Below, piece by piece: positions 5,258 through 23,992 of a stretch of DNA of 64,000 nucleotides (the stretch's first letter is position 1; every line of letters begins with the position of its first letter). This stretch comes from an uncultured Ruminococcus sp. (GTDB lineage: Bacteria; Bacillota; Clostridia; Oscillospirales; Ruminococcaceae), in NCBI GenBank assembly GCA_902783005.1, contig CACZPI010000059.1, positions 12,356-76,355 on the forward strand, in the 5' to 3' direction. The notes beneath the pieces were generated by a model. That model ran no database searches. It saw nothing but the letters and a program-made list of their open reading frames with translations, and was not told where the DNA came from. The position numbers and the translations under genes are program-made.

Positions 5258-5400
5258 AACAGTTCTTCGGGGTATGTGTGATTCATAACCGACGGTGAGC
5301 AGAGGCTGACGCACTCTGTAAGTCCGTGAGCTGCATTTTGCAGCCGAGCCGGTGGGATTCCGGCACCGACGGTACAGTCCGGATGGGAGAAGAATGCATG
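5258..5400 (+). promoter_or_regulatory. FMN riboswitch (RFN element) aptamer
   Basis: Hallmark RFN strings: TTCTTCGGGG (5' P1), ACCGACGGT, CCGTGAGC, GGTGGGATTCCGGCACCGACGGTACAGTCCGGATGGGAGAAGAA (3' P1 pairs GAAGAA with TTCTTC). Located upstream of ribD. Confidence 0.9.
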
Positions 5401-7254: not shown

Positions 7255-7329
7255 TACCCGTCTGAAAATCGCAATTTAACGGCGGAGAAGCGACATTTCC
7301 ATGATCCGCCAGGAAAAAGGAGAACCACT

Positions 7330-8541: not shown

Positions 8542-8555
8542 AAGGAAGTATTCAC

Positions 8556-9017
8556 ATGAAAACACTTGAAGGTATGTACGAAGGCAAGGGTCTGAAAATC
8601 GCGATCGTTGCCGCAAGATTCAATGAATTTATCGTCTCGAAGCTCGTCGGCGGCGCTGAGGACTGCCTTGTCCGCCACGGTGTTGACGGGGATGATATTA
8701 CGCTTGCATGGGTACCGGGCGCATTTGAGATCCCGCTGGTTGCCAAGAAACTCGCCGGATCCGGCAAGTATGATGCGGTGATCTGCGTCGGTGCTGTCAT
8801 TCGCGGTTCCACCAGTCACTACGATTATGTATGCGCCGAGGTTTCCAAGGGCATTGCATCGGTTTCGCTTGAAACCGGCGTTCCGGTCATGTTCGGCGTA
8901 CTGACGACCGATACGATCGAGCAGGCAATTGAGAGAGCCGGTACCAAGGCAGGCAATAAGGGCTATGACTGTGCGCTCGGTGCGCTTGAGCTGGTTTCCC
9001 TGCTGAAGAAGGCATAA
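8556..9017 (+). CDS. ribH: 6,7-dimethyl-8-ribityllumazine synthase
   Basis: Typical lumazine synthase sequence ([34 protein letters not shown]). ATG 8556 has AAAGGAAG 8 nt upstream; the track start 8538 overlaps the ribBA stop and lacks an RBS. Confidence 0.93.
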
Positions 9018-9018
9018 C

Positions 9019-9813
9019 ATGCAGAAAATCCTGTTCTTTGATATCGACGGCACGCTCATGGAGGATTCTTCCTCGCATTTCGTGCCGGAAAGTACCTTTG
9101 AAGCACTCCGGAAAGCAAGAGAAGCCGGGCATCTGCTCTACATCAATACGGGTCGCCCGCTCATCAATGTGGATGCCGATGTTCGCGTGATGGGCTTTGA
9201 CGGATATGTCTGCGGATGTGGCACCTATATTGAATATGACGGCAAGGAAGTGTTCTATCACACACAGCCGGCAGAGGTCTGCCGGAAAATGGTAGAGCTG
9301 ATCCGGGAAACCGACTGCTCTCCCCTCTTTGAACGGCGTGACGGATTCTTCTTTGATCCCCAAACGCGCGATCTTCCGTTTATCAAAACCATCCGGGAAA
9401 CCTTCCGGATGCAGGAGAAAAATGTGTGGCGCAGCGCAGATGATCCGGATTTTGGATTCGACAAATTTGTCATCGGATACGATGAGAAATCCGACCTGGA
9501 CGGATTCAAAGCGGGCATTGCACCCTATTTTCAGTACATTGACCGCGGATACGGATTTGCGGAAATGGCACCGCTCGGCTATTCCAAGGGAACCGGCATG
9601 AAGTGGGTTCTTGAGAAGCATGCCATTTCCAAGGACTGCTGCTACGCCATTGGTGACAGCCTTAACGATCTGCCGATGTTTGAGGAAGCCGGCACCTCGA
9701 TCTGTATGGGAAACGGCGACCTGCTCAAACCGCATGCAGATTATGTGACTGCTGATCTCTGGCATGACGGTGTATATCAGGCCATGGATCATTTCGGTTT
9801 CTTTGAAGCATAA
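9019..9813 (+). CDS. HAD-IIB (Cof-type) phosphatase, candidate 5-amino-6-(5-phospho-D-ribitylamino)uracil phosphatase
   Basis: HAD motif I FFDIDGTL and motif IV GDSLNDLPM. The ATG lies 1 nt after the ribH stop, so it is the last gene of the riboswitch-controlled operon. Confidence 0.85.
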   Translation: MQKILFFDIDGTLMEDSSSHFVPESTFEALRKAREAGHLLYINTGRPLINVDADVRVMGFDGYVCGCGTYIEYDGKEVFYHTQPAEVCRKMVELIRETDCSPLFERRDGFFFDPQTRDLPFIKTIRETFRMQEKNVWRSADDPDFGFDKFVIGYDEKSDLDGFKAGIAPYFQYIDRGYGFAEMAPLGYSKGTGMKWVLEKHAISKDCCYAIGDSLNDLPMFEEAGTSICMGNGDLLKPHADYVTADLWHDGVYQAMDHFGFFEA

Positions 9814-10277: not shown

Positions 10278-11669
10278 ATGCTTGACAAGAATACCATCAA
10301 TCAGGCGCTGTACGACAAGTACATTGCCCCGACAAAAAAAGAACGCTCGCACAGTATCGGTATTGAGGTAGAGATGCCGGTCGTAAATCTGGACGGGCAG
10401 GCTGTGGAGGAATCGGTTTCACTGCAGGTCGCTGACACCTTCCGGAACCATTTCGGGTTTCAGGTGCAGGGACAGGATGCAGACGGGAACTGCAATTCCA
10501 TGTCTGATCCGGTTTCCCTTGATAATCTGTCCTTCGACTGCTCCTATTCCAACCTGGAGCTGAGTCTGGGTAAGGAAACCAACCTTCTGAAGATCCGGGA
10601 GACATTTCTGACCTATTACCGATTCCTGCAGCAGGAATTCGGGAAGTTCGGTTACAGCCTGACCGGAATGGGCATCAATCCGCACTACAACATCAACCAC
10701 AACAAGCCTGTTCCCAATGAACGCTACCGGATGCTCTACCGCTACCTGCATTCCTATCGAGATCATGCAGAGGGGCGGGAGCTGAAATTCCATGACCGTC
10801 CGGACTTCGGAACCTTTACCAGTGCATCCCAGGTGCAGCTCGATGTGGACTATGACCGGCTGATTGAGGAGCTGAATGTATTCGGGTTGCTCGAACCCTA
10901 CAAAGCGCTGCTCTTTGCCAATTCTTATCTGCCGGAATATCCGGATTATCTATGCGCACGGAACATGCTCTGGGAACGTAGCATGCAGGGCTATAACCCC
11001 CATAATGTCGGTATGTTCGGCACTCCCCTGCACAGCATTGAGGAGCTGCTCGCCTACATCCGAACACAATCCGTCTACTGCACGATGCGGGACGGAAAAT
11101 ACATTCATTTTACGCCCATTCCTGTGGGAGAATATTTCTCCAGACCCTATGTTGCGGGTGAATACTTCGATGGGCAGAACTACCAGAGCATTCGTTTTTC
11201 ACCGGAAGCATCCGATCTGGATTACCTTCGCACCTTCAAATTCGAGGACCTCACCTTCCGCGGAACCATCGAATACCGCAGCTCCTGCTGCCAGCCCATC
11301 CGCGATGTGATGACCGTTGCGGCGCTGCATGTAGGACTGAGCAAGCAGGTGCCCAACCTGAAAGAACTGATGGAAGCCGATGAGGTGATTTACGGAAACG
11401 GATACAATGCAGATGAGCTGCAGCATCTTCTGTCAAAGCGGGAACTGCCCGGATTCCTCGATCGGAAGGCCGTTTCAGCTCAGCTGAAACGGATCCTGGA
11501 TATTGCATTCGACGGGTTACGCCTGCGGGGACTGGGAGAGGAAATATTGCTGGATCCGCTGTATACCCGTGCAGAACGTCTGTCAAATCCGGCACGGGAT
11601 ATGGTGGAAGGACTGGAACGCGGTGTATCACTGGAACACTTTATCCGGGATTATGCGGAGGTGATCTGA
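10278..11669 (+). CDS. Glutamate-cysteine ligase family 2 (GCS2, plant/EgtA-like carboxylate-amine ligase), 463 aa
   Basis: GxExE start of the catalytic barrel (IGIEVEMP), PNERYRML, QVQLDV, ALLFANS and TIEYRSSC blocks in the order seen in GCS2/plant-type GCL. AAGGAGG RBS. Confidence 0.75.
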   Translation: MLDKNTINQALYDKYIAPTKKERSHSIGIEVEMPVVNLDGQAVEESVSLQVADTFRNHFGFQVQGQDADGNCNSMSDPVSLDNLSFDCSYSNLELSLGKETNLLKIRETFLTYYRFLQQEFGKFGYSLTGMGINPHYNINHNKPVPNERYRMLYRYLHSYRDHAEGRELKFHDRPDFGTFTSASQVQLDVDYDRLIEELNVFGLLEPYKALLFANSYLPEYPDYLCARNMLWERSMQGYNPHNVGMFGTPLHSIEELLAYIRTQSVYCTMRDGKYIHFTPIPVGEYFSRPYVAGEYFDGQNYQSIRFSPEASDLDYLRTFKFEDLTFRGTIEYRSSCCQPIRDVMTVAALHVGLSKQVPNLKELMEADEVIYGNGYNADELQHLLSKRELPGFLDRKAVSAQLKRILDIAFDGLRLRGLGEEILLDPLYTRAERLSNPARDMVEGLERGVSLEHFIRDYAEVI

Positions 11670-12832
11670 TGCAGTTTAACCATGACTTCTATGCAGGACA
11701 ATTCGGACTGGAGCGCGAAACGCTCAGAATTGACAAAAACGGTCGATTGGCACAGACGCCGCATCCGTCTTCGGATCCGCATATCACCCGCGACTTCTGC
11801 GAAAATCAGATCGAACTGATTACGCCGGTATGCCATTCTGTGGAGGAGGCGCTTGCGTCACTGGCTGCTCTTGATAAGACAGCCAGAGAAACACTTGATC
11901 GCATGGGAGAACAGATCTGGCTTTACAGCAACCCGCCGCACTTTGAAACGGAAGATGAAATTCCGGTGGCAGATTTTCGCGGTGAGCATGCGTCCAAACG
12001 CAATTACCGCGAACTGCTGGAAAGGCGGTACGGAAAAAGACTGATGCTGTATTCGGGCATTCATTTCAACTTTTCATTCAGTGAAGCGTGGCTGCATGAA
12101 TTACAACCAGGCGGGAACGATCAGGAATGCAAGAATGCGTTTTACCTGCGGCTGTACAAGCAGCTTTGCGTGCATAGCTGGCTCCTGGTACTGCTGACAG
12201 CAGCCAGTCCTGTCTATGATAAATCGCTGGACGAAGATAATACAGCCGGAATGATCCGGAGCCGCTATGCATCCATGCGAAACAGCGAGAGAGGTTACTG
12301 GAATGAGTTTATTCCGATTCTCGATCACACAGATCTTGGCACATTTACGGACAGCATCCAGTACTATATCGACAAGGGCGCCCTCTTCTCGGCAAGTGAA
12401 CTGTACCTTCCCATTCGCCTGAAACCAAGGGGGATCAATACGCTGGACAATCTGGCGAAAAACGGAGTAGATCACATCGAACTGCGGATGTTTGACTTAA
12501 ATCCCCTGACCCCCCTTGGAATCGCACCGGAGGATGCGGAATTTGCACATCTTCTTATTCTGTATCTCTCGCAGCAGGAGGATTTCACGTTTACGCCTGC
12601 TATGCAGGAGGAGGCAATCATCAACCACCAGAATGCAGCGCTGTATGATCTGCATGGAGTGACCATTCACAGTATCCCGATCCTCGAGCAGGCAAATACC
12701 ATTCTTGACCACATGTACGCATTCTTTGAAGACAATGACAGAAGCAGACAGGTCATCACCTATGAAAGACAAAAGCTGCAGGATCCGATCTCACATCGGA
12801 TCACAGGCAGCATTTACCAGATAAAGGAGTGA
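11669..12832 (+). CDS. GshA-type (enterobacterial/GshF N-domain-like) glutamate-cysteine ligase homolog, short form 387 aa
   Basis: GLERETLRI, HPSSDPHITRDFCENQIELITP, RNYRELLERRYG and SGIHFNFSF match the GshA signature blocks. TGATG overlap with the upstream gene. Confidence 0.8.
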   Translation: MQFNHDFYAGQFGLERETLRIDKNGRLAQTPHPSSDPHITRDFCENQIELITPVCHSVEEALASLAALDKTARETLDRMGEQIWLYSNPPHFETEDEIPVADFRGEHASKRNYRELLERRYGKRLMLYSGIHFNFSFSEAWLHELQPGGNDQECKNAFYLRLYKQLCVHSWLLVLLTAASPVYDKSLDEDNTAGMIRSRYASMRNSERGYWNEFIPILDHTDLGTFTDSIQYYIDKGALFSASELYLPIRLKPRGINTLDNLAKNGVDHIELRMFDLNPLTPLGIAPEDAEFAHLLILYLSQQEDFTFTPAMQEEAIINHQNAALYDLHGVTIHSIPILEQANTILDHMYAFFEDNDRSRQVITYERQKLQDPISHRITGSIYQIKE

Positions 12833-12837
12833 ATGCC

Positions 12838-13593
12838 ATGTGTGAGCTGATGGGCTTCACGGCAAAGCAGCCAACCAATATCAAGCAATATCTGAACACA
12901 TTTTATTCTCACAGCATTCGTCATCCGCACGGATGGGGTCTTATGCGGGAGCAGCCGGAGCGTGAGATCATCAAGGAGGCCGTCCGTGCCGTAGACAGCC
13001 ATATCCTTCCTGACATTATTGAGGGAACGCATCTCCAGACTACGACGCTTGCGCATATCCGCTTCGCGACAGTCGGTTCGATCCGGCAGGAAAACTGCCA
13101 TCCCTTCACAAGCCGTGACCGATTCGGACGGGAATGGACTTTGATCCACAACGGCACCATTTACTCCGGCAAAACCATGCTGCGCAGGATGGAAGAACAA
13201 AAGGGAGATACGGACTCCGAACGTATGTATCTGTCTCTGATGGATGCCCTGAATGCGCAGGAGCATCCCTTGTCCATGGAGGAGCGTTTCCGTTTGATTG
13301 AACGATTCATCGCTGATACCGCACCCCGCAACAAGCTGAATCTGATGATCTACGACGGAGAACTCCTGTATGTGCACAAGAACATGCGTGAAACGCTGAA
13401 AATGCGGCGTGTGGAACAAGGCTGGCTCTTTGCGACAACGCCCATTGATGATTCCGGTGCATGGCAGGATTTTCCGACTTCTCAGGTCATGGCCTACAGA
13501 AACGGGGAGCTGCTCTTCATCGGGACAAAGCATGGCGGTGAATTCGTTCCGACGCTGGAATACATCACGGCAATGGATGCCATGAATATCTGA
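12838..13593 (+). CDS. Class II (Ntn, Cys1) glutamine amidotransferase-like protein, YafJ/EgtC-like
   Basis: MCELMG N-terminus (nucleophile Cys after Met), HIRFATVG..NCHPF, HNGTI, DSE. AAGGAG 8 nt before ATG 12838. The track start 12829 is a GTG overlapping the upstream stop. Confidence 0.85.
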   Translation: MCELMGFTAKQPTNIKQYLNTFYSHSIRHPHGWGLMREQPEREIIKEAVRAVDSHILPDIIEGTHLQTTTLAHIRFATVGSIRQENCHPFTSRDRFGREWTLIHNGTIYSGKTMLRRMEEQKGDTDSERMYLSLMDALNAQEHPLSMEERFRLIERFIADTAPRNKLNLMIYDGELLYVHKNMRETLKMRRVEQGWLFATTPIDDSGAWQDFPTSQVMAYRNGELLFIGTKHGGEFVPTLEYITAMDAMNI

Positions 13594-13599
13594 TACAGG

Positions 13600-13639
13600 C
13601 TATGCTATAGAGTGGATCTATGGCATAGTATTCTTTTTT
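13600..13639 (+). terminator. Intrinsic terminator of the GCL cassette
   Basis: 11-bp stem CTATGCTATAG / CTATGGCATAG (one G-U), 7-nt loop, then TATTCTTTTTT. Confidence 0.7.
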
Positions 13640-13644
13640 CATAT

Positions 13645-13673
13645 TTTTCAGAATCACTGAGATATGGTATAAT
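13645..13673 (+). promoter_or_regulatory. Candidate metF promoter (TTTTCA-17-TGgTATAAT)
   Basis: Extended -10 consensus, weak -35. The leader to the ATG is only about 30 nt. Confidence 0.5.
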
Positions 13674-13705
13674 AAAAGCATACTAATTTGATAGGAGTAA
13701 TTCTC

Positions 13706-14587
13706 ATGATCTCAGCAGAACGATTTGCACAAAAAACAGTCTTTTCACTCGAAGTATTCCCGCCAAAACCCGATGCGGACATCCACACGATTTACCAAAC
13801 GATCGACGAGCTTTCAGAGGTCGAACCGGATTTCATCAGTGTGACCTATGGTGCAGCCGGCGGAAAAAACGGATGCAGAACAATTCAGATTGCATCTGAT
13901 ATTCAAAGCCAATACGGCATTGAAAGCGTTGCACATCTCCCCTGCATCGGACTGACCCGACAGCAGGCGGAAACCATTCTCAAAGACCTTGAATCTCACG
14001 GCATCCGGAATATTCTGGCGCTGCGCGGCGACATTCCTGTAGGCGTAGCTGCTTTGGGAGATTTTGCACATGCAAGCGATCTGATCCATTTTATCCGGGA
14101 ACGATATGATTGTCATATCATCGGCGCCTGCTACCCGGAGGTACATCCGGAAAGTGCCTCAGCTGTGGATGACATCCGTCACCTGCGGGAGAAGACAGAT
14201 GCCGGATGTGAGCATCTGATCTCACAGCTATTTCTGGATAATGCGGATTTCTACCGATTCCGGGATCGTGCAGAGCTTGCCGGGATCCATGTGCCGATTG
14301 AAGCAGGCATCATGCCGGTGACCAACCGGAAGCAGATTGAACGCATGGTACAACTGTGCGGCATCCGCCTGCCTGAGAAATTCATCCGGATGCTCGACCG
14401 GTATGCGGATGATCCGCAGGCGCTTCGTGATGCGGGGATTGCATACGCTATCAGCCAGATCACGGATCTGATTGCTCATGGAGTAGACGGAATTCATCTC
14501 TATACCATGAACCAGCCTGAAACCGCAAAACGTATCTATGACGCAGTCAAATCCCTGATCCAAATCAAACAGCACGTTCCGGTATGA
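13706..14587 (+). CDS. metF: Methylenetetrahydrofolate reductase
   Basis: FSLEVFPPK, ISVTYGAGG and ALRGD motifs of MTHFR. ATG 13706 is preceded by TAGGAG; the track start 13688 is a TTG. Confidence 0.92.
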   Translation: MISAERFAQKTVFSLEVFPPKPDADIHTIYQTIDELSEVEPDFISVTYGAAGGKNGCRTIQIASDIQSQYGIESVAHLPCIGLTRQQAETILKDLESHGIRNILALRGDIPVGVAALGDFAHASDLIHFIRERYDCHIIGACYPEVHPESASAVDDIRHLREKTDAGCEHLISQLFLDNADFYRFRDRAELAGIHVPIEAGIMPVTNRKQIERMVQLCGIRLPEKFIRMLDRYADDPQALRDAGIAYAISQITDLIAHGVDGIHLYTMNQPETAKRIYDAVKSLIQIKQHVPV

Positions 14588-14608
14588 TGCCGGAACGTGC
14601 TGTTTTTC
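14571..14608. terminator. Bidirectional intrinsic terminator between convergent metF and cysN
   Basis: AGCACGTTCCGG-tatgatg-CCGGAACGTGCT with GTTTTTC on plus and a T-rich run on minus. It contains the metF stop and abuts the cysN stop. Confidence 0.85.
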
Positions 14609-16301
14609 AGATATAAGCACCAGATATAAAGATTTTACGGAATGTATCAAAGCAGAGCCACTTTCCGAACAGATCCGGGAGTGTCGCTTCGTCCGATCCT
14701 GCATAATCCTGCATGAACTGACGCACATCTTCATCCGTTTGCGCCTGAACTGCAAAGCCACGGCCATTGACCAGCGGCACGCTGCCGTCATAATGATAAT
14801 CCTCAAATCGTTCGAGCTTCTGTACAACACGACCGCGGATCGTAACAGCAACCCTGTCCCGCAGCACGATGATATCCAGATCATCCGGGTATGCGTAGCT
14901 TTTGCCCTGTGTCGGGATCTCATCTCCCACATGATAGGTGTTCCGGATGGTCTGTGCGTGGAATACATTGTAGCTGTTTACATCGTAGTAGAATTCCTCG
15001 AACAGATCGCCCTTTGCATGCAGCGTTCCGTCAGTAAATGACGCATCCTCCTGCACATCTGCACGGTCATGGACGCTTTCAACGACACCGCAAGCCGATG
15101 TCATATTTGTCACGCGGTCAATCAGAATGAGCTCGCCAAGTGTGCGATGCACTGCAAACCGGTCTGCCGGGATTGCTTCCTGCAATGTCACCGTGCAACG
15201 TGCAATGCTGTTTTTGTTCAGCCGATCTGCCGGGATATGTTCACCGGTGTTGATATCTACTGCATACAGAATGGATGTCAGCACACCGGGAATCAGCTTG
15301 GTTCCCAGCTTGACAAGATAATCCTTGCCGACCGTCAGATCGCTGTCATCCATCCAGAGGAGAGATACCTCCAGCTTTTTGTATGCGGCAAGGGCATCGT
15401 CGGTTGTCAGCACACTTCCGCGGGAAACGTCCACTTCCCTGTCGAGCGTGATGGTAACAGGCTGCCCTGCATAAGCTGCATTCACATTGTGATCCGTATG
15501 TAAAATACCCTTCACAGCAGCGGTTTCATGACTCGGAAGCACACGGATTGTATCTCCGACTGCAATGCTGCCTGACTCGATCTGCCCCTGAAATCCCCGG
15601 AAGGTATGATCCGGACGGCATACACGCTGGACAGGAAGATAAAATGCTTCTTCACGCGAGGCATCAACATCCACCTGTTCAAGATAAGTCAGAAGCGGCT
15701 CACCGGTATACCACGGCATCTGATCAGAATGCGTTGTCACATTGTCTCCCTCGGTTGCGGAAAGAGGAATGACCTTCACCTGTTCAAGCCCCAATGCAGA
15801 GGCAAGCTCTGAAATATCCGCTTCAATGGCGCGGTATTTTGCTTCATCGTAGCCGATCAGATCCATTTTATTTACGGCGAATACATAATGCCAGATGCCC
15901 ATGAGCGAGCAGATTCTTGCATGGCGGCGAGTCTGCACCAGAATGCCCTGCGAGGCATCTACCAGGATCACAGCCAGATCCGCGAAGGATGCACCAACTG
16001 CCATATTCCGGGTGTATTCCTCATGGCCGGGGGTATCTGCTACGATAAAGCTGCGGTGATCTGTCGTAAAATAGCGGTAGGCCACATCAATCGTGATTCC
16101 CTGTTCGCGCTCTGCCATCAGCCCGTCAAGCAGCAGCGAATAATCAATTCCGCCGCTGCGGCTCCCGACCTTGCTGTCAAGTGCCAGCGCCTTTTCCTGA
16201 TCGGCATAGAGGAGCTTGGCATCATACAGAATATGCCCGATCAGCGTAGATTTTCCATCATCCACACTGCCGCATGTGATGAATTTCAGAAGTCCCTTCA
16301 T
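14607..16301 (-). CDS. cysN: Sulfate adenylyltransferase subunit 1 (GTPase) with ~140-aa C-terminal extension of unknown function
   Basis: G1 GSVDDGKST, G3 DTPGH, G4 NKMD; EF-Tu-like domains II/III end near ILIDRVTNMTSACGVV. The remaining ~140 aa have no P-loop. TGATG overlap with cysD. Confidence 0.9.
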   Translation of the reverse strand: MKGLLKFITCGSVDDGKSTLIGHILYDAKLLYADQEKALALDSKVGSRSGGIDYSLLLDGLMAEREQGITIDVAYRYFTTDHRSFIVADTPGHEEYTRNMAVGASFADLAVILVDASQGILVQTRRHARICSLMGIWHYVFAVNKMDLIGYDEAKYRAIEADISELASALGLEQVKVIPLSATEGDNVTTHSDQMPWYTGEPLLTYLEQVDVDASREEAFYLPVQRVCRPDHTFRGFQGQIESGSIAVGDTIRVLPSHETAAVKGILHTDHNVNAAYAGQPVTITLDREVDVSRGSVLTTDDALAAYKKLEVSLLWMDDSDLTVGKDYLVKLGTKLIPGVLTSILYAVDINTGEHIPADRLNKNSIARCTVTLQEAIPADRFAVHRTLGELILIDRVTNMTSACGVVESVHDRADVQEDASFTDGTLHAKGDLFEEFYYDVNSYNVFHAQTIRNTYHVGDEIPTQGKSYAYPDDLDIIVLRDRVAVTIRGRVVQKLERFEDYHYDGSVPLVNGRGFAVQAQTDEDVRQFMQDYAGSDEATLPDLFGKWLCFDTFRKIFISGAYI

Positions 16302-17200
16302 CAGAAATAGCCCTCCCTCTTTCTTCTTTCCATGCTGCCTGCCGCCTCGTTGTCAATTACACGGGATGTGCGCTCCGATTCTACACTGCTCAGCGTTTCC
16401 TCAATGATCTCATCAAGGGTATGCGCGGTCGATTCGATGCCTCCGGTCAGAGGGTAGCAGCCAAGCGTCCGGAACCGGACGGATTTCATCTGCGGCACCT
16501 CACCTTCGCGCAGGGGGAACCTTTCATCATCGACCATAATGATATTGCCATCCCGCTCCACGACAGGGCGCTCCGCTGCAAAATACAGCGGCACAATGTC
16601 GATGTGCTCACGGCGGATATACTGCCAGATGTCCTTTTCTGTCCAGTTGGAGATCGGGAACACACGAATACTCTCGCCCTTGTGAATGCGGGTGTTGTAG
16701 AGCTTCCACATCTCAGGGCGCTGGTTCTTCGGATCCCATGCATGGGTCGCACTTCGGAAAGAGAAGATCCGCTCCTTGGCGCGGGATTTCTCTTCATCAC
16801 GCCTGCCGCCGCCAAATGCCGCTGTGAATCCATATTTGTCAAGCGCCTGCTTGAGCGCCTGGGTTTTCATGATGTCCGTATAGGCGCTGCCGTGGTCGAA
16901 GGGATTGATCCCGCGTGCTACGCCGTCCTGGTTGATATATTCCAGCATTTCGATGCCGAGACGCTTTGCAGTACGGTCGCGGAAGTCAATCATTTCCTTG
17001 AATTTCCATGTCGTATTGACATGCAAAAAAGGAAACGGCGGCTTTTCTGGATAAAATGCCTTCATCGCAAGATGCAGCATGACAGAACTGTCCTTACCGA
17101 TCGAGTAAAGCATGACAGGTCTTTCGCATTCTGCCGCCACCTCCCGGATAATATAGATCGCTTCTGCCTCCAGTTCGTCAAGATGCGTCAGTTCACCCAT
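16301..17200 (-). CDS. cysD: Sulfate adenylyltransferase subunit 2
   Basis: PP-loop SIGKDSSV and typical CysD blocks ([26 protein letters not shown]). ATG 17200 has AGGAGG upstream; the track start 17221 is a TTG. Confidence 0.93.
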
Positions 17201-17217
17201 TATGGTTGCCTCCTGAT

Positions 17218-17532
17218 TCAATATTGATTCGATTCCTTCCGATTCACCTGGATTTCGGTGGTACGTCCGTCCGGATGTTCAATGATCCATCGGAGAATCT
17301 CTCCCTCCTGTTCGGTATGCAGCATACTCCCCTGCCCGCCAATATCTGCACCCAGATAAAAACGAATGGCAGATACCGGGCATTCCTTGACACAGGAGGT
17401 GCATCCCCAGCAGTCGCGGGGATATTTGATATACGCGCGGTGATCGCAGTCAAATTTGATGAGTGTACCGGGGCAGACATCATGACATCTGCCGCAGCCG
17501 ATACAGATCTTGCTGTCAATCCTGATGCTCAT
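17218..17532 (-). CDS. AprB-like 2x[4Fe-4S] ferredoxin subunit of APS (adenylylsulfate) reductase
   Basis: [12 protein letters not shown] and [12 protein letters not shown] cluster motifs. 17-nt overlap with the flavoprotein gene. Confidence 0.8.
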
Positions 17533-19198
17533 AATGACACCCCTTTCCGGTCACAAGATCACGCAGGATCACCCGGATCTCTCCATTTTCCATGCGGGAA
17601 TTGACATACACATTCCAATGTGCGTCATCCCGGTCAGGATAATCGAGATGCTCTGCAAAGCTATGCCAGCGCGTTTCCTGCCGTGCTGCCAGATGTGCAA
17701 TGACACTCCGGCAGACTGTCAGACGCTCACGAAGCTCATAAATATACATAAGCTCCTGAAAATCCGATGCATGCAGCGTATCCGATAATGCTTCAATCTG
17801 TCGGATCTTTTCATCGGCAAGGGCAAGCTGTCCGGCATTGTACCGGTAATTCGTTTTAATTCCGCCTGCGTAGCTGTCCATGACTGTCTGCATCGCTTCT
17901 TCAAGCTGCTCCGTTGTATAGAGAGTATTCCTGTCAGATAAGAAATGCCCGATCTCATGCAAATGCGCATCAATATGCTCTTGCGGGATGCTTGCATGAT
18001 CGCAGTCGAGCAGGAAATGCAGGACAGATTCGGCAGCGATCTCTCCTTCTGCCAATGCGCCGGTGACATATTTCTGCGGGGCACCGCCGCACACATCCCC
18101 GGCTGCATAAAGCCCGCGGATGGTCGTTGCACGCCCGGTATCGACCCAATAGCCGCTGGCCGTATGACCACCGACAATATAGGGCTCCGTCCCTTCAATT
18201 TCGACGTTCTGCGATGCGGGGCCATGCCCGGTTTCGATCCATTTGAGCGTCTGGGAAGGCGCCATATTCAGATAGGCCTTCATCAGTGAATCCTGCTGTT
18301 CATCGGAAATGCCTTCTGTACGCAGGAAGCACGGGCCTCTCCCCTCCTGGTTTTCATTGACAGTGCCATAGACACGTTCGGAAGTGGTCAGTCCGTATTT
18401 CTGCTCATAGACCTCACCCAGGGAATTGATCTGCCTGGCACCAACACCCTGTGCAAGTGTTCCCGTCGGTGCGATGGTGTCCTTGCAGCGAAGTGCGATA
18501 AATCGCATTTCAAAGGTCGTCATCTCGGCACCATGGCGGATTCCCATGGCGTAACCCGCTCCCGTATTGAAGGGCGGGTACCACATCTTATGACGGGAAA
18601 ATCCGGGGTTATTGGGCTTGTATAATCCTGCCGCACCACCGGTCGCCACAATCACGGCATCTGCCTGAATGACATAAAACGTATCATTTTCAATGCCGAT
18701 GCCATAAGCACCACAGATTCGGTTATCCTGTACTTCAAAGTCAATGATGTTCACACGGTTGAGCACCGTCACCTGATCGAGCGCCAATACGGCATCTGCA
18801 AGCAGCGGCTTGATGTTTTCACCGTTGATCTTGATGTTGCGCCAGCCGCGGGAGACATAGTTTCCGGCTGCATCCTTGAGAATGACAAGTCCAAGCTGTT
18901 CGAGCCGGCGCGTCACAGAATTGAGCCGCTCTGACATGGTGACCAGAAGATCCTCACGGGCAATACCTGCGGCATCGTGCATACAGTAATCTGCATAATC
19001 CTGCGGCGTGTGACCCTCTGTAATATAAGCATTGAGCGCATTCACACCCGCTGCAAGACAGCCGCTCCGGCGGATGTGCGCTTTCTCACAGATCAATACC
19101 TGCCTGTCAGACTGTTCTGCGATCGTCAGCGCTGCCCAGCAGCCGGCGGTACCGCCGCCGATGATCAGGACATCTGTGTGTAGAAATTCCTTTTTCAT
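17516..19198 (-). CDS. AprA-like FAD flavoprotein subunit of APS reductase (fumarate reductase/succinate dehydrogenase flavoprotein family)
   Basis: N-terminal DVLIIGGGTAGC dinucleotide fold, 560 aa, paired with the AprB-like ferredoxin and cysDN. AGGAGG RBS. Confidence 0.8.
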   Translation of the reverse strand: MKKEFLHTDVLIIGGGTAGCWAALTIAEQSDRQVLICEKAHIRRSGCLAAGVNALNAYITEGHTPQDYADYCMHDAAGIAREDLLVTMSERLNSVTRRLEQLGLVILKDAAGNYVSRGWRNIKINGENIKPLLADAVLALDQVTVLNRVNIIDFEVQDNRICGAYGIGIENDTFYVIQADAVIVATGGAAGLYKPNNPGFSRHKMWYPPFNTGAGYAMGIRHGAEMTTFEMRFIALRCKDTIAPTGTLAQGVGARQINSLGEVYEQKYGLTTSERVYGTVNENQEGRGPCFLRTEGISDEQQDSLMKAYLNMAPSQTLKWIETGHGPASQNVEIEGTEPYIVGGHTASGYWVDTGRATTIRGLYAAGDVCGGAPQKYVTGALAEGEIAAESVLHFLLDCDHASIPQEHIDAHLHEIGHFLSDRNTLYTTEQLEEAMQTVMDSYAGGIKTNYRYNAGQLALADEKIRQIEALSDTLHASDFQELMYIYELRERLTVCRSVIAHLAARQETRWHSFAEHLDYPDRDDAHWNVYVNSRMENGEIRVILRDLVTGKGCHYEHQD

Positions 19199-19209
19199 GA
19201 TGCCTCCTG

Positions 19210-19620
19210 TCAGAGAATGACAAGCTCCTCACGGTTTGCTTCTGTCCCCTCGATATGGAAGGAATTCAGAACAGGGCTATTCGCATCCTGCAAAGACAGG
19301 ATCAGATAACTTGCCCGGCTGTCAAAAGCCAGACGTTTATCCTCCTCAGAGGGACGCGACGGAGAGGCCGGATGTGAATGCCAGTTGCCCAGCGGAACAA
19401 ATCCACCTGCACGCATATCCTTGATCGCAGTAAGCTGTTCCTTGGGATCAAGTGTGAAATGCTCCTCGGCATGATCGATATTGGTCAGGATGTAGACACG
19501 TTCAATGTGCTTGTCATCGCCGTCGATCGTACCGCCGATCAGACCACACGCCTCCACCGGTGCTTCCTGTCTGGCATGTGCGAGAATACGTTCATAATCC
19601 TCTTTATGCATGGTGATCAT
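19210..19620 (-). CDS. JAMM/MPN+ metalloprotease (Mec+/HcyD/QbsD-like)
   Basis: EACGL upstream Glu and exact HxHx7SxxD motif (HSHPASPSRPSEED). ATGA overlap with the E1 gene stop fixes the start at 19620. Confidence 0.88.
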   Translation of the reverse strand: MITMHKEDYERILAHARQEAPVEACGLIGGTIDGDDKHIERVYILTNIDHAEEHFTLDPKEQLTAIKDMRAGGFVPLGNWHSHPASPSRPSEEDKRLAFDSRASYLILSLQDANSPVLNSFHIEGTEANREELVIL

Positions 19621-20429
19621 AATCCGGTTCCCTCGCATTCTGCCTGTTCATAGTCGATCAGCTTTGTAATGGTCGGATTGCTGCCGCATACCGGGCATTT
19701 GCTGGTATCGTGCGGAAGCGTGATCTTGCGGAAATCCATATTCAGTGCATCATACGTCAGGAGAGATCCCGTCAGGAGCTTACCCTGTCCGATGATATAT
19801 TTGACTGCTTCCATTGCCTGCAGGCTGCCGATCACACCGCCCATCGCACCAATGACGCCTGCCTGCTTGCAGGTCGGCACAGCGTCCTTTGGCGGCGGTT
19901 CCTTGAAGACACAGCGGTAGCAGGGGCCTTCTCCGGGGACATAGGTCATGAGCTGACCCTTGAAACGGATGATGCCGGCATGTGAAAACGGCTTTTTCGC
20001 CATGACGCAGGCATCATTGATCAGGAATTTCGCCGGGAAATTGTCTGTCCCGTCGAGGATGAAATCATAATCCTTGATGATGTCGAGGATGTTTTCACTC
20101 GTAATGAATTCGTGATACGTCACGACCTTCACATCCGGATTGATCGCTTCCATGGATTCTCTGGCAGACTCTACCTTGGGCTTGCCGATATCAGCAGTTG
20201 CATGAATGACCTGACGCTGGAGATTGGAGAGATCCACCTCATCTGCATCCGCAATGCCGATGGTACCGACACCCGCTGCTGCAAGGTACAATGCGGCCGG
20301 TGCTCCAAGCCCGCCAGCTCCGATGATCAGCACCTTTGCATTCAGCAGCTTCTTTTGTCCCTTCGCACCGACCTCCTTGAGGATGATGTGGCGGGAATAG
20401 CGTTCGATCTGCTCATTCGTTAATGCCAT
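19617..20429 (-). CDS. ThiF/MoeB/HesA-type E1-like adenylyltransferase (HcyF/MoeZ-like, no rhodanese domain)
   Basis: RYSRHI, GAGGLG, LQRQ, and zinc CxxC pairs CYRC and CPVC; 270 aa. ATG 20429 (MALTNEQIERY) lies inside the 3' end of the carrier gene. Confidence 0.9.
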   Translation of the reverse strand: MALTNEQIERYSRHIILKEVGAKGQKKLLNAKVLIIGAGGLGAPAALYLAAAGVGTIGIADADEVDLSNLQRQVIHATADIGKPKVESARESMEAINPDVKVVTYHEFITSENILDIIKDYDFILDGTDNFPAKFLINDACVMAKKPFSHAGIIRFKGQLMTYVPGEGPCYRCVFKEPPPKDAVPTCKQAGVIGAMGGVIGSLQAMEAVKYIIGQGKLLTGSLLTYDALNMDFRKITLPHDTSKCPVCGSNPTITKLIDYEQAECEGTGL

Positions 20430-20634
20430 ACTGACCGCCTCCCATGAAATACAGGAACTCCACACTGTCGCCGTCATGAAGCACCGTGCTCTCGAATGCG
20501 CCGCTCTCGACAAATTCATCATTGATGGTGACGGTCACATACTGCGGGGTCTCGACATTCTCATCAATCACCAGCTGTGCTACGGTCAGTCCGTCTGCAA
20601 CCTCTTTCTGTACGCCTGCTACTGTAATCTTCAT
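20413..20634 (-). CDS. ThiS/MoaD-like sulfur-carrier protein with GG followed by a 6-residue tail (..FMGGG-QYGINE)
   Basis: 73-aa beta-grasp-sized ORF (MKITVAGVQKEV..DSVEFLYFMGGGQYGINE). AAGGAGGA lies 7 nt before ATG 20634. The track start 20685 overlaps the thioredoxin gene. Confidence 0.85.
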   Translation of the reverse strand: MKITVAGVQKEVADGLTVAQLVIDENVETPQYVTVTINDEFVESGAFESTVLHDGDSVEFLYFMGGGQYGINE

Positions 20635-20647
20635 AATCGTTTCCTCC

Positions 20648-20962
20648 TTAAAGTGCTGCAATTGCAGCTTCAATTTCTTCTGCATTGACTGCGCCGCGCA
20701 GACGGTTCACCTCAGTGCCGCCCTGAAACAACACAAGCGTCGGTGCTGCCTGGATCTCATATTGTTCTGTCAAGGCTTCCTCATAGAGAATATTGACCTT
20801 GACAATCTTCACCTGCTCTCTGAACTGCTCCTCAAGCCGGGTCAGGATCGGAGACAGGCGCTTGCAGGGAATGCAGCTGTCGGAATAAAAATCAACCAGC
20901 ACCGGCTTCTCTGCGGCCAGTACCTCTGATTCAAATTCCGCTGCCGTAATGCGCTGTGCCAT
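20648..20962 (-). CDS. Thioredoxin-family protein with CIPC active site
   Basis: VLVDFYSDSCIPCKRL in place of the WCGPCK block, thioredoxin length (104 aa). ATG 20962 preceded by AGGTGGGGG. Confidence 0.88.
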   Translation of the reverse strand: MAQRITAAEFESEVLAAEKPVLVDFYSDSCIPCKRLSPILTRLEEQFREQVKIVKVNILYEEALTEQYEIQAAPTLVLFQGGTEVNRLRGAVNAEEIEAAIAAL

Positions 20963-20963
20963 G

Positions 20964-21209
20964 TCAATCCCCCACCTTTCTGACGATGAGGGTATAGGTT
21001 CCGTCGCCGTTGTCATCGAGCTTCAGGATCTTGTGTCCCTCCTCCTTGATGCTGCGCGGAACATTCTGCACCGGTTCTCCGTCGTTCATTCTGACAGCGA
21101 GAATATCGCCGTCGTCGAGTTCTTCAAGAGCCACCTTTGCCTTGACAAAGGTCACCGGGCAAACCACATCCGTAATATCTACGGTGTCTGTAATCGTAAT
21201 ATCAGCCAT
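20964..21209 (-). CDS. TusA/SirA-family sulfur-relay protein (81 aa)
   Basis: Conserved Cys-Pro motif DVVCPVTFVKAK followed by GDILAV..D. The ATG overlaps the sulfite reductase stop, with GGAGG upstream. Confidence 0.85.
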   Translation of the reverse strand: MADITITDTVDITDVVCPVTFVKAKVALEELDDGDILAVRMNDGEPVQNVPRSIKEEGHKILKLDDNGDGTYTLIVRKVGD

Positions 21210-22065
21210 TATGATACGCCTCCATGATTTTCTCATTAAATTTGTCCCACCCGATCCGGTCAAGCGTAAACTTAAAACGTTCCCCCGGAAGAGCATTGTC
21301 GTCAAAGAACTGAATTGCCGTGTCGCAGATGCGCATGAGCGTGTCATGATCCTCGATAAACGGGATCACTGCTTCACCCTTGGCAATGTGATTGCCGAAC
21401 AGTCCGCCAAAGCTGACGACATACCCCTGAATCGTGTCCCATGCATCCGTAGGACAGGCCTTGCAGCAGCGTCCGCAGAAGTTGCACAGGTCACTGTTGA
21501 CCGTGATCTTGCCATCCTCCAGCGCAATCGCCTTGCTGCGGCATGCCTTGACACAGACACCGCAGGAAATGCAGTCCGCTTCACGCCATGTCACCTTGAT
21601 GCCGCCCTTGATACCAAGATCATTCTCCTCGGCTTTCAGACAGTTGTTCTGGCAGCCGGTGATGCCAAACTTGAATTTATGCGGCAGCTCTCTCGCAAAA
21701 TACCGATCATCAAGCTCCTTGGCAAGCGCATAGGTATCAATACATCCGCTCGGACAAATCGCTGCGCCCTGACAGGCCGTAATGGTTCTGACACGAGGTC
21801 CGCAGACACCCGGCTCCACACCGCCGTCTGCAAGTGCTGCCTTCACGGAATCAATCTCCTCGAGCTTGATAAAGGGAATCTCAATACTCTGACGCGAGGT
21901 CAGATGCACATGACCGTCGCCGAATTGTTCTGCGACCTCTGCGATCTTGGCAAGCTGTACTGCCGTGACATTGCCGCCGACCACGCGCAGGCGCAGAGAA
22001 AAATGATTCTTCTGCTTCTGCCGCATAAAGCCGCCCTTTTTCAGTGTTCCGTAATCTACTGCCAT
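21202..22065 (-). CDS. Small siroheme sulfite/nitrite reductase family protein with inserted 2x[4Fe-4S] ferredoxin domain
   Basis: Siroheme-[4Fe-4S] ligand motifs CQGAAIC (Cx5C) and GCQNNC (Cx3C), ferredoxin motifs CISCGVCVKAC and CNFCGRCCKACP. ATG 22065 follows AAAGGAG by 8 nt. Confidence 0.85.
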   Translation of the reverse strand: MAVDYGTLKKGGFMRQKQKNHFSLRLRVVGGNVTAVQLAKIAEVAEQFGDGHVHLTSRQSIEIPFIKLEEIDSVKAALADGGVEPGVCGPRVRTITACQGAAICPSGCIDTYALAKELDDRYFARELPHKFKFGITGCQNNCLKAEENDLGIKGGIKVTWREADCISCGVCVKACRSKAIALEDGKITVNSDLCNFCGRCCKACPTDAWDTIQGYVVSFGGLFGNHIAKGEAVIPFIEDHDTLMRICDTAIQFFDDNALPGERFKFTLDRIGWDKFNEKIMEAYHNG

Positions 22066-22081
22066 GGTACTCACTCCTTTA

Positions 22082-23311
22082 TTATGACTGTGATGCTTCT
22101 ATTGCCTGGGAAAAATCCGCGATCAGATCTTCGGCGTCTTCAATTCCGACACTGATGCGGATGGTGTCGCTGTATACCCCCGCAAGCTCTTGTTCCGCTT
22201 CGCTGCTATGCGCATAGATCGTACTTGCCGGATGAATAACAAGCGTCCGGACATCTCCGATATTCGTAGCGATCTTCGCATATTGCAGGTGATTCATCAG
22301 ACGAAACGCCCGTTCCTTACTACCTGTACGGATGGTCAGGATCGCACCGCCCTTCCCGCCGAACTGGGCTTCAGCCAGTGTATGAGACGGACTGGAGGCA
22401 AGGCCGGGATAATTAACTTCGATCCCCGGTGTATGAGCAAAGAATTCCGCGAGCTTCTGTGCATTACAACAGATTTTTTCCATCCGCAGACCTAAAGTTT
22501 CCAGGCCGATGGTATTCAGAAATGCATGAAACGGTGCCAGACAACAGCCTGTATTGCGCCAGATGTCATTCCGGAGTCTTGCCAGATAAGCAAATTTCCC
22601 GAAGCGCTTATACTCAGAAAATCCAGGATAGCGCTCCGGATTCCAGCTGAAATGTCCGCTGTCAATAATCACACCGCTGATCGCATCACCGCTTCCGTTG
22701 ATATACTTGGAAGTCGAATGGATCACAACATCCGCACCGTATTCAAACGGATGCACAAGATACGGTGTTGCCGTTGTGCTGTCGATCAGCAAAGGAATAC
22801 CGTGCTTGTGACACACCTCTGAAACCGCCCGGATATCAACGATATCCAGCTTCGGATTGCCAATCAGCTCGGTGAATACTGCTTTTGTGCGATCGTTAAT
22901 CAAGGATCCGACCGATTCGGCAGTAATGGAATCTGCAAATCTTGTCACAATTCCAAATGCCTGGAGGTCACGCAAAAGATCAATTGTACCTCCGAATAGC
23001 CCTGCTCCGGCAATGATCTCATCTCCGGATTGCAGGATATTCAGAAGAGACATTGTAACCGCCGCCATTCCCGAGGAACAGGCTACTGCGCCGATGCCCC
23101 CTTCTAAAGCCGCGATCCGCTTTTCAAAGGCATCTACTGTCGGATTCCCGATCCGGGAATATGCAAAACCCGGTGCTTTGTTATGGAATACCTCCTCGAG
23201 CTTTTCAGCAGATCCGTGAGAAAATGCGCTGACCTGATAGACAGGCGGCAGCGTCGCACCGTTCGGATCGGATGCATCCGCTTTATGTAAAAGTGCTGTA
23301 TTGAACTGCAT
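22082..23311 (-). CDS. metY: O-acetylhomoserine sulfhydrylase-type PLP enzyme (Cys/Met metabolism family)
   Basis: Family blocks YSRIGNPT, SGMAA and the PLP-lysine motif HSTSKYINGSGD. Two in-frame ATGs: 23317 is 3 nt from the AAGGGAG SD, 23311 is 9 nt from it and was chosen. Confidence 0.9.
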   Translation of the reverse strand: MQFNTALLHKADASDPNGATLPPVYQVSAFSHGSAEKLEEVFHNKAPGFAYSRIGNPTVDAFEKRIAALEGGIGAVACSSGMAAVTMSLLNILQSGDEIIAGAGLFGGTIDLLRDLQAFGIVTRFADSITAESVGSLINDRTKAVFTELIGNPKLDIVDIRAVSEVCHKHGIPLLIDSTTATPYLVHPFEYGADVVIHSTSKYINGSGDAISGVIIDSGHFSWNPERYPGFSEYKRFGKFAYLARLRNDIWRNTGCCLAPFHAFLNTIGLETLGLRMEKICCNAQKLAEFFAHTPGIEVNYPGLASSPSHTLAEAQFGGKGGAILTIRTGSKERAFRLMNHLQYAKIATNIGDVRTLVIHPASTIYAHSSEAEQELAGVYSDTIRISVGIEDAEDLIADFSQAIEASQS

Positions 23312-23335
23312 GGACATTCACTCCCTTAGTTGTGT

Positions 23336-23356
23336 TGTAGGAACAATATTATTATA
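23336..23356 (-). promoter_or_regulatory. Operator-like element overlapping -10/+1 of the sulfur operon (TATAATAATATTGTTCCTACA on minus)
   Basis: 19/21 identical to 10208-10228. The TTCCTA core resembles the ATTCCKA half of the reverse-complemented CymR box. Confidence 0.5.
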
Positions 23357-23379
23357 GCCTATTAAACATAGTAAGTCAA
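23351..23379 (-). promoter_or_regulatory. sigma-A promoter of the metY-to-cysN operon (TTGACT-17-TATAAT)
   Basis: Perfect hexamers read on the minus strand. This leaves a 5' UTR of only ~25-30 nt, so there is no room for an S-box or T-box. Confidence 0.75.
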
Positions 23380-23454
23380 TATGCTTTATGAATATTCTAT
23401 CAATATAACATATATAACCAGTAGGTTAAGTATAGATTTGTTGAAAATACCCAC

Positions 23455-23483: not shown

Positions 23484-23542
23484 AACTATATACATATGTT
23501 TACTATGTTTTAAGAATACAAACTTGAAAGGAAGTGATCGTC

Positions 23543-23992
23543 ATGAAGATCTCCACCAAGGTCGAATGCGGTATCATCGCACTGGTGGACATCTGTATCC
23601 ATGCCGACGGAGATGAGGTCGTGACCATTGTAACAATCGCACGGCGACAGAACCTCTCGGCAAAATATCTCGAACAGATCGTTCCTCTGTTGAAACACGC
23701 TGATATCATACGAAGCGTCAAAGGTGCCAAGGGCGGATACAGACTCTCACGCTCGCCGCAACAGATCAATATGAAACAAGTGGTAACAGCACTCGACAGC
23801 ACTGTGCTGAGCGATGCGGTATTCGATCAGATGGAACAGACGCATATCATCTCAGCGATAGACAAATGCATGTGGAACAGGATGTCTGATTCGCTTCGCA
23901 ATATTGCAGAGCAGATCACCCTTGCGGATATTGCGGAGCATTACGGACAGATCTCTGATGAAAATGCAGAACAGCTGATGTACTATATCTAA
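23543..23992 (+). CDS. Rrf2-family transcriptional regulator (CymR/IscR-like)
   Basis: Winged-helix block MKISTKVECGIIALVDI..IARRQNLSAKYLEQIVPLLKHADIIRSVKGAKGGYRL. ATG 23543 follows AAAGGAAG. No three-Cys cluster motif is evident, so it is CymR-like rather than IscR-like. Confidence 0.88.
   Translation: MKISTKVECGIIALVDICIHADGDEVVTIVTIARRQNLSAKYLEQIVPLLKHADIIRSVKGAKGGYRLSRSPQQINMKQVVTALDSTVLSDAVFDQMEQTHIISAIDKCMWNRMSDSLRNIAEQITLADIAEHYGQISDENAEQLMYYI

Follow-up and report, generated by a model that had tools for sequence, protein, structure and literature searches.

Neighbourhoods in which a ThiS/MoaD-like protein, a JAB protein, an E1 enzyme without a rhodanese domain and SirA occur together with sulfate assimilation genes and an O-acetylhomoserine (OAH) sulfhydrylase were catalogued by Iyer, Burroughs and Aravind in 2006 (PMC1779556, Table 1 row 4e). 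They were recorded in Wolinella, Geobacter and several Firmicutes, with SirA always present and probably replacing the rhodanese (PMC1779556), and the Wolinella pathway is cited as established by later papers (PMC8191291). Here we describe an eleven-gene operon of this kind on a 64,000 nucleotide (nt) stretch of DNA from an uncultured Ruminococcus sp. (GenBank assembly GCA_902783005.1, contig CACZPI010000059.1, positions 12,356 to 76,355), the whole of which is referred to below as the window. The operon probably represents an assimilatory sulfate reduction system wired into protein-thiocarboxylate-dependent homocysteine synthesis. An earlier note, made from the letters of the window, had proposed this reading, and it is sustained by the fit of the domains, a carrier protein with a masked C-terminus, an adjacent JAMM protease gene and the strict co-occurrence of the core genes in 80 genomes and also in other Clostridia. 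The eleven family assignments in that note were likewise all borne out by Pfam or NCBIfam profile matches (Table 1).

All the defining members of class 4e are present in the window, including the rhodanese-less E1 with SirA/TusA. The class, however, lists a CysH-type 3′-phosphoadenylylsulfate (PAPS) reductase and an adenylylsulfate (APS) kinase, a form that is seen in loci L087-L089 and L091, while the window encodes an AprAB-like reductase, a kinase-less CysN and an added thioredoxin. The HcyS/HcyF/HcyD/MetY route of Wolinella succinogenes, reportedly described by Krishnamoorthy and Begley in 2011, is the source of the analogy for the MetY and JAMM steps proposed below. As in the HcyS/HcyF/HcyD/MetY/Sir system, a ThiS-fold carrier with residues past Gly-Gly, a JAMM protease, an E1, MetY and a sulfite reductase (Sir) are clustered in the window, and the predicted chemistry is the same. 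The HcyS tail is said, in the same 2011 work, to be a single Ala, whereas the tails described here follow GGG and comprise 1-6 residues. Further differences from Wolinella are that TusA and a CxPC thioredoxin belong to the core, that the Sir is a small protein with a ferredoxin insert, and that MetY is no closer to the Wolinella enzyme (3ri6) than to ordinary MetY enzymes.

The CysO/MoeZ/Mec+/CysM route of Mycobacterium tuberculosis likewise delivers a carrier thiocarboxylate to a pyridoxal phosphate (PLP) enzyme, with a JAMM hydrolase freeing the amino acid, but in the window the PLP enzyme has the gamma-family MetY fold instead of that of CysM, the E1 has no rhodanese domain and the carrier is a pro-form. 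Both AprAB-like subunits are homologous over their full length to the PAPS reductase of Methanothermococcus (MtPAPSR; 8a8o; Jespersen and Wagner 2023, PMC10322725), and the small Sir most closely resembles the C-terminal half of Fsr, an F420-dependent sulfite reductase. In contrast to MtPAPSR, no linked APS kinase/PAP phosphatase partner is found here, and CysDN takes the place of the Sat-type ATP sulfurylase. The Clostridium acetobutylicum operon CA_C0102-CA_C0110 (PMC4845359) shares MetY, the AprA-like protein, the ferredoxin subunit, CysD, CysN and a CymR/Rrf2-type regulator with the window, but has cysC and a sulfate ABC transporter and, as listed, is without carrier, E1, JAMM, TusA and Sir. 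The fusion of sulfate assimilation with a carrier system is not new, having been catalogued in 2006; what is new here is the Asn-type loop of the reductase, found in loci without an APS kinase gene, the clade-specific CxPC thioredoxin and, at the C-terminus of CysN, an unassigned domain of 154 residues.

The carrier, E1 and JAMM proteins

The C-terminus of the predicted carrier reads ...EFLYFMGGGQYGINE, in which the motif EFLYFMGGG is followed by the tail QYGINE. The motif is invariant among the homologues and is in each case followed by a tail of 1-6 residues (80/80 carriers of the clade and four distant ones). In the clade this tail is Q in 59/80 genomes, besides which R, SL, MC, QYGAY and SDGSDE are seen, and in other Clostridia the tails AR, AL, TL and QYKKIA occur. 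Most relatives read GGT CAG TAA TGG, such that the carrier stop codon overlaps the E1 start (TAATG). At positions 20413-20440 (minus strand) of the window one A has been lost from this overlap, and the carrier reads through five out-of-frame E1 codons to a TGA, so that the length of the QYGINE tail is explained by the loss of a single nucleotide. A harmless extension of this kind would be expected if everything past the Gly run is removed, as the adjacent JAMM protease would do. Inside the stretch of Gly codons of the carrier, GGAGG doubles as the Shine-Dalgarno sequence of the E1 gene.

The carrier exceeds the cutoff of the ThiS model TIGR01683 (59 bits; cutoff: 37), and its closest solved protein is a deposited 'ThiS' (2k5p/3cwi) ending in ...FMGGGK, while CysO, likewise a solved structure (3dwg chain C), is matched weakly. 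The E1 carries the motifs GAGGLG, CYRC and CPVC and shares 71% amino acid identity with the E1 of the Syntrophobotulus glycolicus cluster. Neither thiG nor thiH is among the genes identified in the operon and in those related loci that were examined. The metal site of the JAMM protein is intact, with E23, H81-S-H83, S91 and D94 conserved in 33 diverse homologues. Its closest solved protein is the 'uncharacterized protein' 2kks (58.5% identity). A JAMM profile search matched close relatives only. The best solved relatives of the MetY protein are OAH sulfhydrylases; it scores 429 bits against TIGR01326, below the cutoff of 495, and 295 bits against the W. succinogenes MetY (3ri6).

Conservation of the core and exchange of the sulfur supply module

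A carrier with the EFLYFMGGG signature was observed in at least 556 species genomes in a genome scan. The loci of the 80 closest carriers, all belonging to the Ruminococcus clade, were mapped with the eleven proteins and additional queries, while more distant contexts were drawn from five look-ups in other Clostridia and from a metagenome scan. The names borne by identical and near-identical proteins point to a source in Oscillospiraceae/Ruminococcus, and the closest species genome is that of Candidatus Ruminococcus hominiciens. The operon occurs exactly as in the window in seven of the 80 loci, and in a twelve-gene version, with trxB (thioredoxin reductase) between the JAMM gene and aprA, in a further 24, giving 31 complete sulfate-type operons, while nine loci are truncated or variant sulfate-type loci. 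In 13/80 loci the genes metY-sir-tusA-trx-carrier-E1-JAMM are present but both aprAB and cysDN are lacking from the 3 kb downstream, and twelve loci have no sir, eleven of these with a cysteine desulfurase gene adjoining the core. The order carrier-E1-JAMM-tusA is found in five loci, and the arrangement is not assignable in the remaining ten, which lie on short contigs. The two modules also occur in reversed order on gut metagenome contigs, with aprAB-cysDN preceding metY to the JAMM gene. These arrangements point to a conserved unit, metY-tusA-trx-carrier-E1-JAMM, for which Sir, aprAB-cysDN and a cysteine desulfurase linked to an encapsulin would be interchangeable sources of sulfur.

Most of the sir-less loci harbor, upstream of the core, cysE, a gene for a ThiS-ThiF-rhodanese fusion, a type 2A encapsulin gene (SrpI-like, PF19307) and the cysteine desulfurase gene. 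The encapsulin-linked desulfurase has an N-terminal extension of approximately 200 residues, and trxB and, in some loci, cysK are located downstream of the core. Examples include Ruminococcus flavefaciens ATCC 19208 (L046:2739-13446) and loci L011, L028, L034, L038, L048 and L065, among others. This suggests that in the sir-less variant an encapsulated desulfurase may feed the same thiocarboxylate route. No mention of an encapsulin together with a thiocarboxylate was found in the literature searched.

In Syntrophobotulus glycolicus, Acetivibrio mesophilus, a Clostridium species and Gracilibacter, the order is cysPTWA-cysH-cysD-cysNC-carrier-E1-JAMM-sir-tusA, where cysPTWA encodes a sulfate ABC transporter and cysNC a fusion of CysN with an APS kinase. 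The gene metY follows the cluster in Syntrophobotulus, and the thioredoxin gene is absent from the clusters of all four. Caproiciproducens has the core and no sulfate module. Identity to the Syntrophobotulus proteins is 58-71% for the core proteins of the window (42% for the short carrier), as against 36% for CysD and 32% for CysN, a difference that points to a module swap. Judged by these comparisons, the operon is a conserved carrier core with an exchangeable supply module, here aprAB-cysDN.

The AprAB-like reductase and its likely substrate

The alpha subunit of the AprAB-like reductase shares 51% amino acid identity over 546 residues with the alpha subunit of MtPAPSR (8a8o_A; Bitscore: 608), and the beta subunit 47% identity over 100 residues with its counterpart (8a8o_C), both beta subunits being 104 amino acids long. 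The models for the dissimilatory enzymes are matched far less well, with 311 bits for TIGR02061 (aprA; cutoff: 642) and 53 bits for TIGR02060 (aprB; cutoff: 136). A dissimilatory Apr function in sulfate reduction was considered and rejected, as both subunits fall below these equivalog cutoffs, dsrAB and qmo genes are absent from the operon and the context is assimilatory.

The activity of MtPAPSR is about 16-fold higher towards PAPS than towards APS (PMC10322725). This preference has been attributed to substitutions in the loop of residues 104-123, and Gln145 of the Archaeoglobus fulgidus enzyme, it was noted, would clash with the 3′-phosphate (PMC10322725). When the loops of A. fulgidus AprA, MtPAPSR and the window protein are aligned, the corresponding residues are, respectively, E141/R118/R117, Q143/K120/W119 (N in most members of the clade), W144/R121/R120, Q145/S122/N121 and M147/K124/K123. 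The APS-binding Gln145, Glu141 and Trp144 of A. fulgidus are thus replaced by Asn, Arg and Arg, and in place of the PAPS-type Lys120-Arg121-Ser122 the window protein has Trp119-Arg120-Asn121, with Asn-Arg-Asn in most of the clade.

In 118 AprA-like loci from the genome and metagenome scans, the loop was typed and APS kinase genes were sought with a profile built here. No APS kinase gene was found in the fetched flanks of any of the 103 loci with an Asn-type loop, 50 of which have flanks of more than 5 kb on both sides. A standalone APS kinase gene lies directly upstream of aprA in 8/10 Lys-Arg-Ser loci (Fisher's exact p = 9e-11, a value not corrected for shared ancestry). One of the other two Lys-Arg-Ser loci is that of Methanothermococcus thermolithotrophicus, which is known to have an APS kinase. 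On account of this contrast, APS rather than PAPS is the likely substrate of the Asn-type enzyme. The observation in the earlier note that the operon has no APS kinase gene gains weight from this comparison and extends to the entire 64-kb window. Its description of the step as AprAB-type APS reduction is probably right, as the comparison of loops and kinase genes favours APS, but APS reduction could not have been read from the annotation, because the only characterised member of the family is PAPS-specific (8a8o). The Ser/Asn and Lys/Asn differences in the loop track the presence of the APS kinase gene, and may offer a simple predictor of APS or PAPS specificity.

Sulfite reductase, TusA, thioredoxin and CysDN

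Among solved proteins, the small Sir comes closest to the C-terminal half of Fsr (7np8; Bitscore: 133), with which its four siroheme/cluster cysteines (CX5C...CX3C) align. The Cys of the CP[TVI]TF motif of TusA is invariant in 75 homologues. A 779-residue Sir-TusA fusion protein with a C-terminal TusA domain is encoded in metagenome locus L093 (L093:1648-3987), where the cluster also encodes the carrier, E1, JAMM, MetY, an APS kinase, a Na/sulfate symporter, a Sat-type ATP sulfurylase and a Lys-Arg-Ser-type AprAB. This fusion, together with the 8-nt overlap of sir and tusA in the window, leads us to infer that Sir passes its product to TusA, an idea in line with the finding, reported in 2026, that zero-valent sulfur is released by assimilatory sulfite reductases (PMC13188885).

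The CxPC thioredoxin is a clade-specific member of the core, for the most part accompanied by trxB. Its gene forms part of the core of nearly all Ruminococcus-clade loci, and its active site motif is CVPC or CIPC in 70/71 homologues of the clade. That trxB so often accompanies it suggests that the core contains a dedicated disulfide-reducing step. Two extra sulfur-handling genes had been set apart from the described core in the earlier note; this applies to the thioredoxin as a conserved, clade-specific addition, but not to TusA, which belongs to the core because SirA is always present in class 4e of 2006.

CysN is 564 amino acids in length, and its C-terminal domain, at residues 411-564, is located where CysNC fusions carry the APS kinase domain. 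No Pfam, NCBIfam or Protein Data Bank (PDB) match was found for this domain, a CBS-like hint (E = 0.11) being too weak to use, and a single-sequence AlphaFold model of CysN (mean pLDDT: 30) was unusable. A degenerate or novel APS kinase was considered for the domain and rejected, as it is not similar to the kinase domain and occurs alongside a separate kinase in loci L102 and L104.

Proposed pathway and alternative explanations

In the proposed pathway CysDN, by family membership, would make APS, which the ferredoxin-type AprAB-like reductase would convert to sulfite, a step assigned even though the sole characterised member of the family prefers PAPS. The small siroheme-containing Sir would reduce the sulfite and give its sulfur to TusA, in keeping with the putative coupling of the two. 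The JAMM protease would trim the tail of the carrier after the Gly run, and the rhodanese-less E1 would adenylate the exposed C-terminus, with the sulfur entering either as sulfide or as the TusA persulfide. If the latter, the CxPC thioredoxin might, speculatively, resolve a TusA-carrier acyl-persulfide to the thiocarboxylate. By analogy with Wolinella, MetY would join the thiocarboxylate to OAH and, after an S-to-N acyl shift, the JAMM protease would free homocysteine. The convergence of metF on the operon is counted as supporting context for the homocysteine reading. The earlier note went too far in placing the whole route from sulfate to homocysteine in the operon, which encodes no sulfate transporter, homoserine O-acetyltransferase, thioredoxin reductase, siroheme synthesis or electron donor. 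An extended proposal, unlikely to hold in all its parts, is that sulfate is converted to homocysteine in this widespread gut and rumen clade without PAPS or free sulfide. It would combine an Asn-type reductase that has gone back from PAPS to APS (by a Ser-to-Asn change at the Gln145 equivalent, with Lys120 lost), a CysDN with a novel domain in the former place of the kinase, a zero-valent-sulfur persulfide passed from Sir to TusA, a thioredoxin (with TrxB in most relatives) resolving the acyl-persulfide, and an encapsulin-enclosed desulfurase as the alternative sulfur source.

Several points weigh against the proposed pathway and give its rivals their substance. The functions assigned to the proteins of this clade come from comparison, and the grouping of the eleven genes as a putative single transcription unit comes from their spacing. 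The thioredoxin is absent from the five clusters of other Clostridia and is thus not universally required. As regards the reductase, the genome could hold an APS kinase gene at some other place, and R117, R120 and K123, the basic residues of the loop, are shared with the PAPS reductase, where A. fulgidus AprA has E, W and M. It is accordingly conceivable, if somewhat unlikely, that the enzyme uses PAPS like its Methanothermococcus relative, with APS kinase and PAP phosphatase genes located elsewhere. The closest characterised enzyme is, after all, the PAPS-preferring MtPAPSR, and cysC adjoins the aprA-like gene in C. acetobutylicum. However, the distribution of APS kinase genes between Asn-type and Lys-Arg-Ser loci, their absence from the window and the replacement of both the Ser and the Lys of the Methanothermococcus loop all argue for APS.

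As regards the carrier system, the carrier is a ThiS in NCBIfam, the E1 also passes the MoeB and ThiF models, and sequence models alone do not part the two from thiamine or molybdenum cofactor (Moco) systems; MetY, moreover, has no particular closeness to the Wolinella enzyme, and free sulfide may simply be its substrate. On this alternative reading MetY would take up the sulfide released by Sir, while the carrier, E1, JAMM, TusA and thioredoxin would serve other sulfur transfers (thiamine, Moco or tRNA thiolation) or a SAMP-like conjugation and share only the regulon. NCBIfam matches to ThiS, ThiF/MoeB, a SAMP-activating E1 and desampylase would agree with this, as would the general acceptance of sulfide by MetY enzymes (PMC8191291). 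We nevertheless consider it improbable, given that no thiG, thiH, moaE or tRNA thiolase gene is found in the operon or the related loci examined and that the C-terminus of the carrier is masked, unlike those of ThiS and MoaD. The gene order with metY is, furthermore, strict in 80 genomes, metY lies in the cluster in 3/5 of the other Clostridia, and even the sir-less variants keep it beside the carrier genes. Least probable of all is cysteine as the end product, by a CysO/CysM-like route. The best NCBIfam model for MetY is a bifunctional OAH/O-acetylserine (OAS) sulfhydrylase subfamily, matched below its cutoff, and cysK and cysE flank some of the variants; where present, however, cysK is a further gene in its own right, the fold of the PLP enzyme is that of the gamma family (PF01053) and not the PALP fold of CysM and CysK, the E1 is without the rhodanese domain of MoeZ, and it is metF that converges on the operon. 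Homocysteine synthesis through a carrier thiocarboxylate, with sulfate as the sulfur source, thus remains the reading that we prefer.

Organization and regulation of the operon

The eleven open reading frames (ORFs) run head to tail on the minus strand from position 23317 to 14607 (Table 1). With start codons chosen by recognisable ribosome-binding sites, the ten junctions are, in order, +16, -8, +1, +13, -17, -4, +11, -17, +17 and -1 nt. The tusA start at 21209 is also the one called in metagenome records of identical sequence. The spacing given in the earlier note, with overlaps or gaps of 17 nt or less, agrees with this range of -17 to +17 nt. The promoter that it placed upstream of metY could also be confirmed as a match to the consensus at 11/12 positions, with the highest score in the region, and is kept in sequence and position in approximately 20 orthologous loci of other species. 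Weaker promoter-like matches inside the operon number 17, against 12.3 +/- 3.6 expected, and occur at about the chance rate. The bidirectional terminator of the earlier note fared less well. The hairpin is strong on both strands (operon strand: -28.5 kcal/mol; opposite strand: -30.5 kcal/mol), but its T tracts are weak (4/8) and the terminator scan made no call at this position. A bidirectional terminator is plausible. The hairpin overlaps the final 17 nt of the convergent metF ORF, the stop codon of which is at 14585-14587.

Table 1. Features of the sulfate-to-homocysteine operon and its flanks (positions in the window)
Feature	Position	Strand	Evidence or remark
MetY-type PLP O-acetylhomoserine sulfhydrylase	22082..23317	-	PF01053 Cys_Met_Meta_PP, 373 bits
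Small siroheme sulfite reductase, 287 aa, inserted 2x[4Fe-4S] ferredoxin domain	21202..22065	-	NIR_SIR_ferr, NIR_SIR, Fer4
TusA (SirA) sulfurtransferase	20964..21209	-	PF01206; start overlaps sir stop by 8 nt
Thioredoxin, CIPC active site	20648..20962	-	PF00085
ThiS-fold sulfur-carrier pro-protein	20413..20634	-	PF02597, TIGR01683
ThiF/MoeB-type E1 adenylyltransferase, no rhodanese domain	19617..20429	-	PF00899 only, 270 aa
JAMM/MPN+ metalloprotease, HcyD/Mec+-like, Prok-JAB	19210..19620	-	PF14464
AprAB-like (P)APS reductase alpha (FAD) subunit, assimilatory, Asn-type loop	17516..19198	-	NF005331, 930 bits
AprAB-like reductase beta (2x[4Fe-4S]) subunit, 104 aa	17218..17532	-	matches MtPAPSR beta
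CysD, sulfate adenylyltransferase small subunit	16301..17200	-	NF009214, 526 bits, above cutoff
CysN GTPase, sulfate adenylyltransferase large subunit, residues 1-410	15072..16301	-	TIGR02034, 521 bits, above cutoff, residues 5-407
Conserved CysN C-terminal domain, 154 residues (411-564)	14607..15071	-	motifs RGDxFEEFYYD, GDEIP, NGRGF
Sigma-70-type promoter TTGACT-17-TATAAT	23351..23379	-	11/12 positions; best match in region
Perfect 16-bp hairpin, probable terminator, shared with convergent metF	~14567..14605	.	folding energy on both strands
Divergent Rrf2-family regulator, CymR-like, candidate repressor	23534..23992	+	Pfam Rrf2
Imperfect palindrome over -35 box and spacer, candidate Rrf2/CymR operator	23358..23384	-	consensus CCTATTGACTTACTATG-N5-GTAGGnTATAAT

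The best NCBIfam model for the divergent regulator is CymR, which it matches with 102.7 bits, under the cutoff of 195, and a divergent rrf2 gene adjoins metY in 24 related loci. The palindrome overlapping the promoter is common to the orthologous intergenic regions of approximately 20 species. It includes the 11-mer TTACTATGTTT, of which an inverted copy lies in the rrf2 leader at 23500-23510, suggesting both repression of the operon and autoregulation of rrf2. The C. acetobutylicum operon metY-cysC-aprA-like-fd-cysDN is under the control of CymR (PMC4845359). Taken with the palindrome and the CymR-like regulator, this suggests that the operon is repressed when cysteine is plentiful, probably by the divergent Rrf2 protein. 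A riboswitch or attenuator was rejected for the operon leader, which is short (approximately 25 nt) and in which the Rfam scan gave none.

The sole Rfam match reported is an FMN riboswitch at 5259-5398 on the plus strand (95.7 bits), and the ORFs downstream of it (5501-9813) are taken to be riboflavin biosynthesis genes. A convergent four-gene unit (10278-14587, plus strand) encodes a GCS2-like protein of 463 amino acids, for which there is no NCBIfam match, a GshA-like glutamate-cysteine ligase, an EgtC-like class-II amidotransferase and MetF. Located beside the sulfur operon, this unit may encode a pathway for gamma-glutamyl-cysteine or another low-molecular-weight thiol. In locus L002, which belongs to the species of the window, the genes from metY to aprB are 100% identical to those of the window, while cysD and cysN are 86% and 66% identical, respectively, and BioY follows the operon in place of metF. 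The divergence of cysD and cysN looks like the result of a recombination breakpoint within the operon.

Biological significance

The operon is common in Ruminococcus relatives of the human gut and the rumen. Given the assimilatory context seen here, aprA- and aprB-like genes in gut metagenomes should not be taken to indicate dissimilatory sulfate reduction. The Sir-TusA fusion and the embedded thioredoxin/TrxB pair suggest that sulfur may be handed on as a protein persulfide in these bacteria. The route to methionine through a protein thiocarboxylate, for which the biochemistry has been shown in Wolinella only, may be a main route of sulfur assimilation in abundant commensals.

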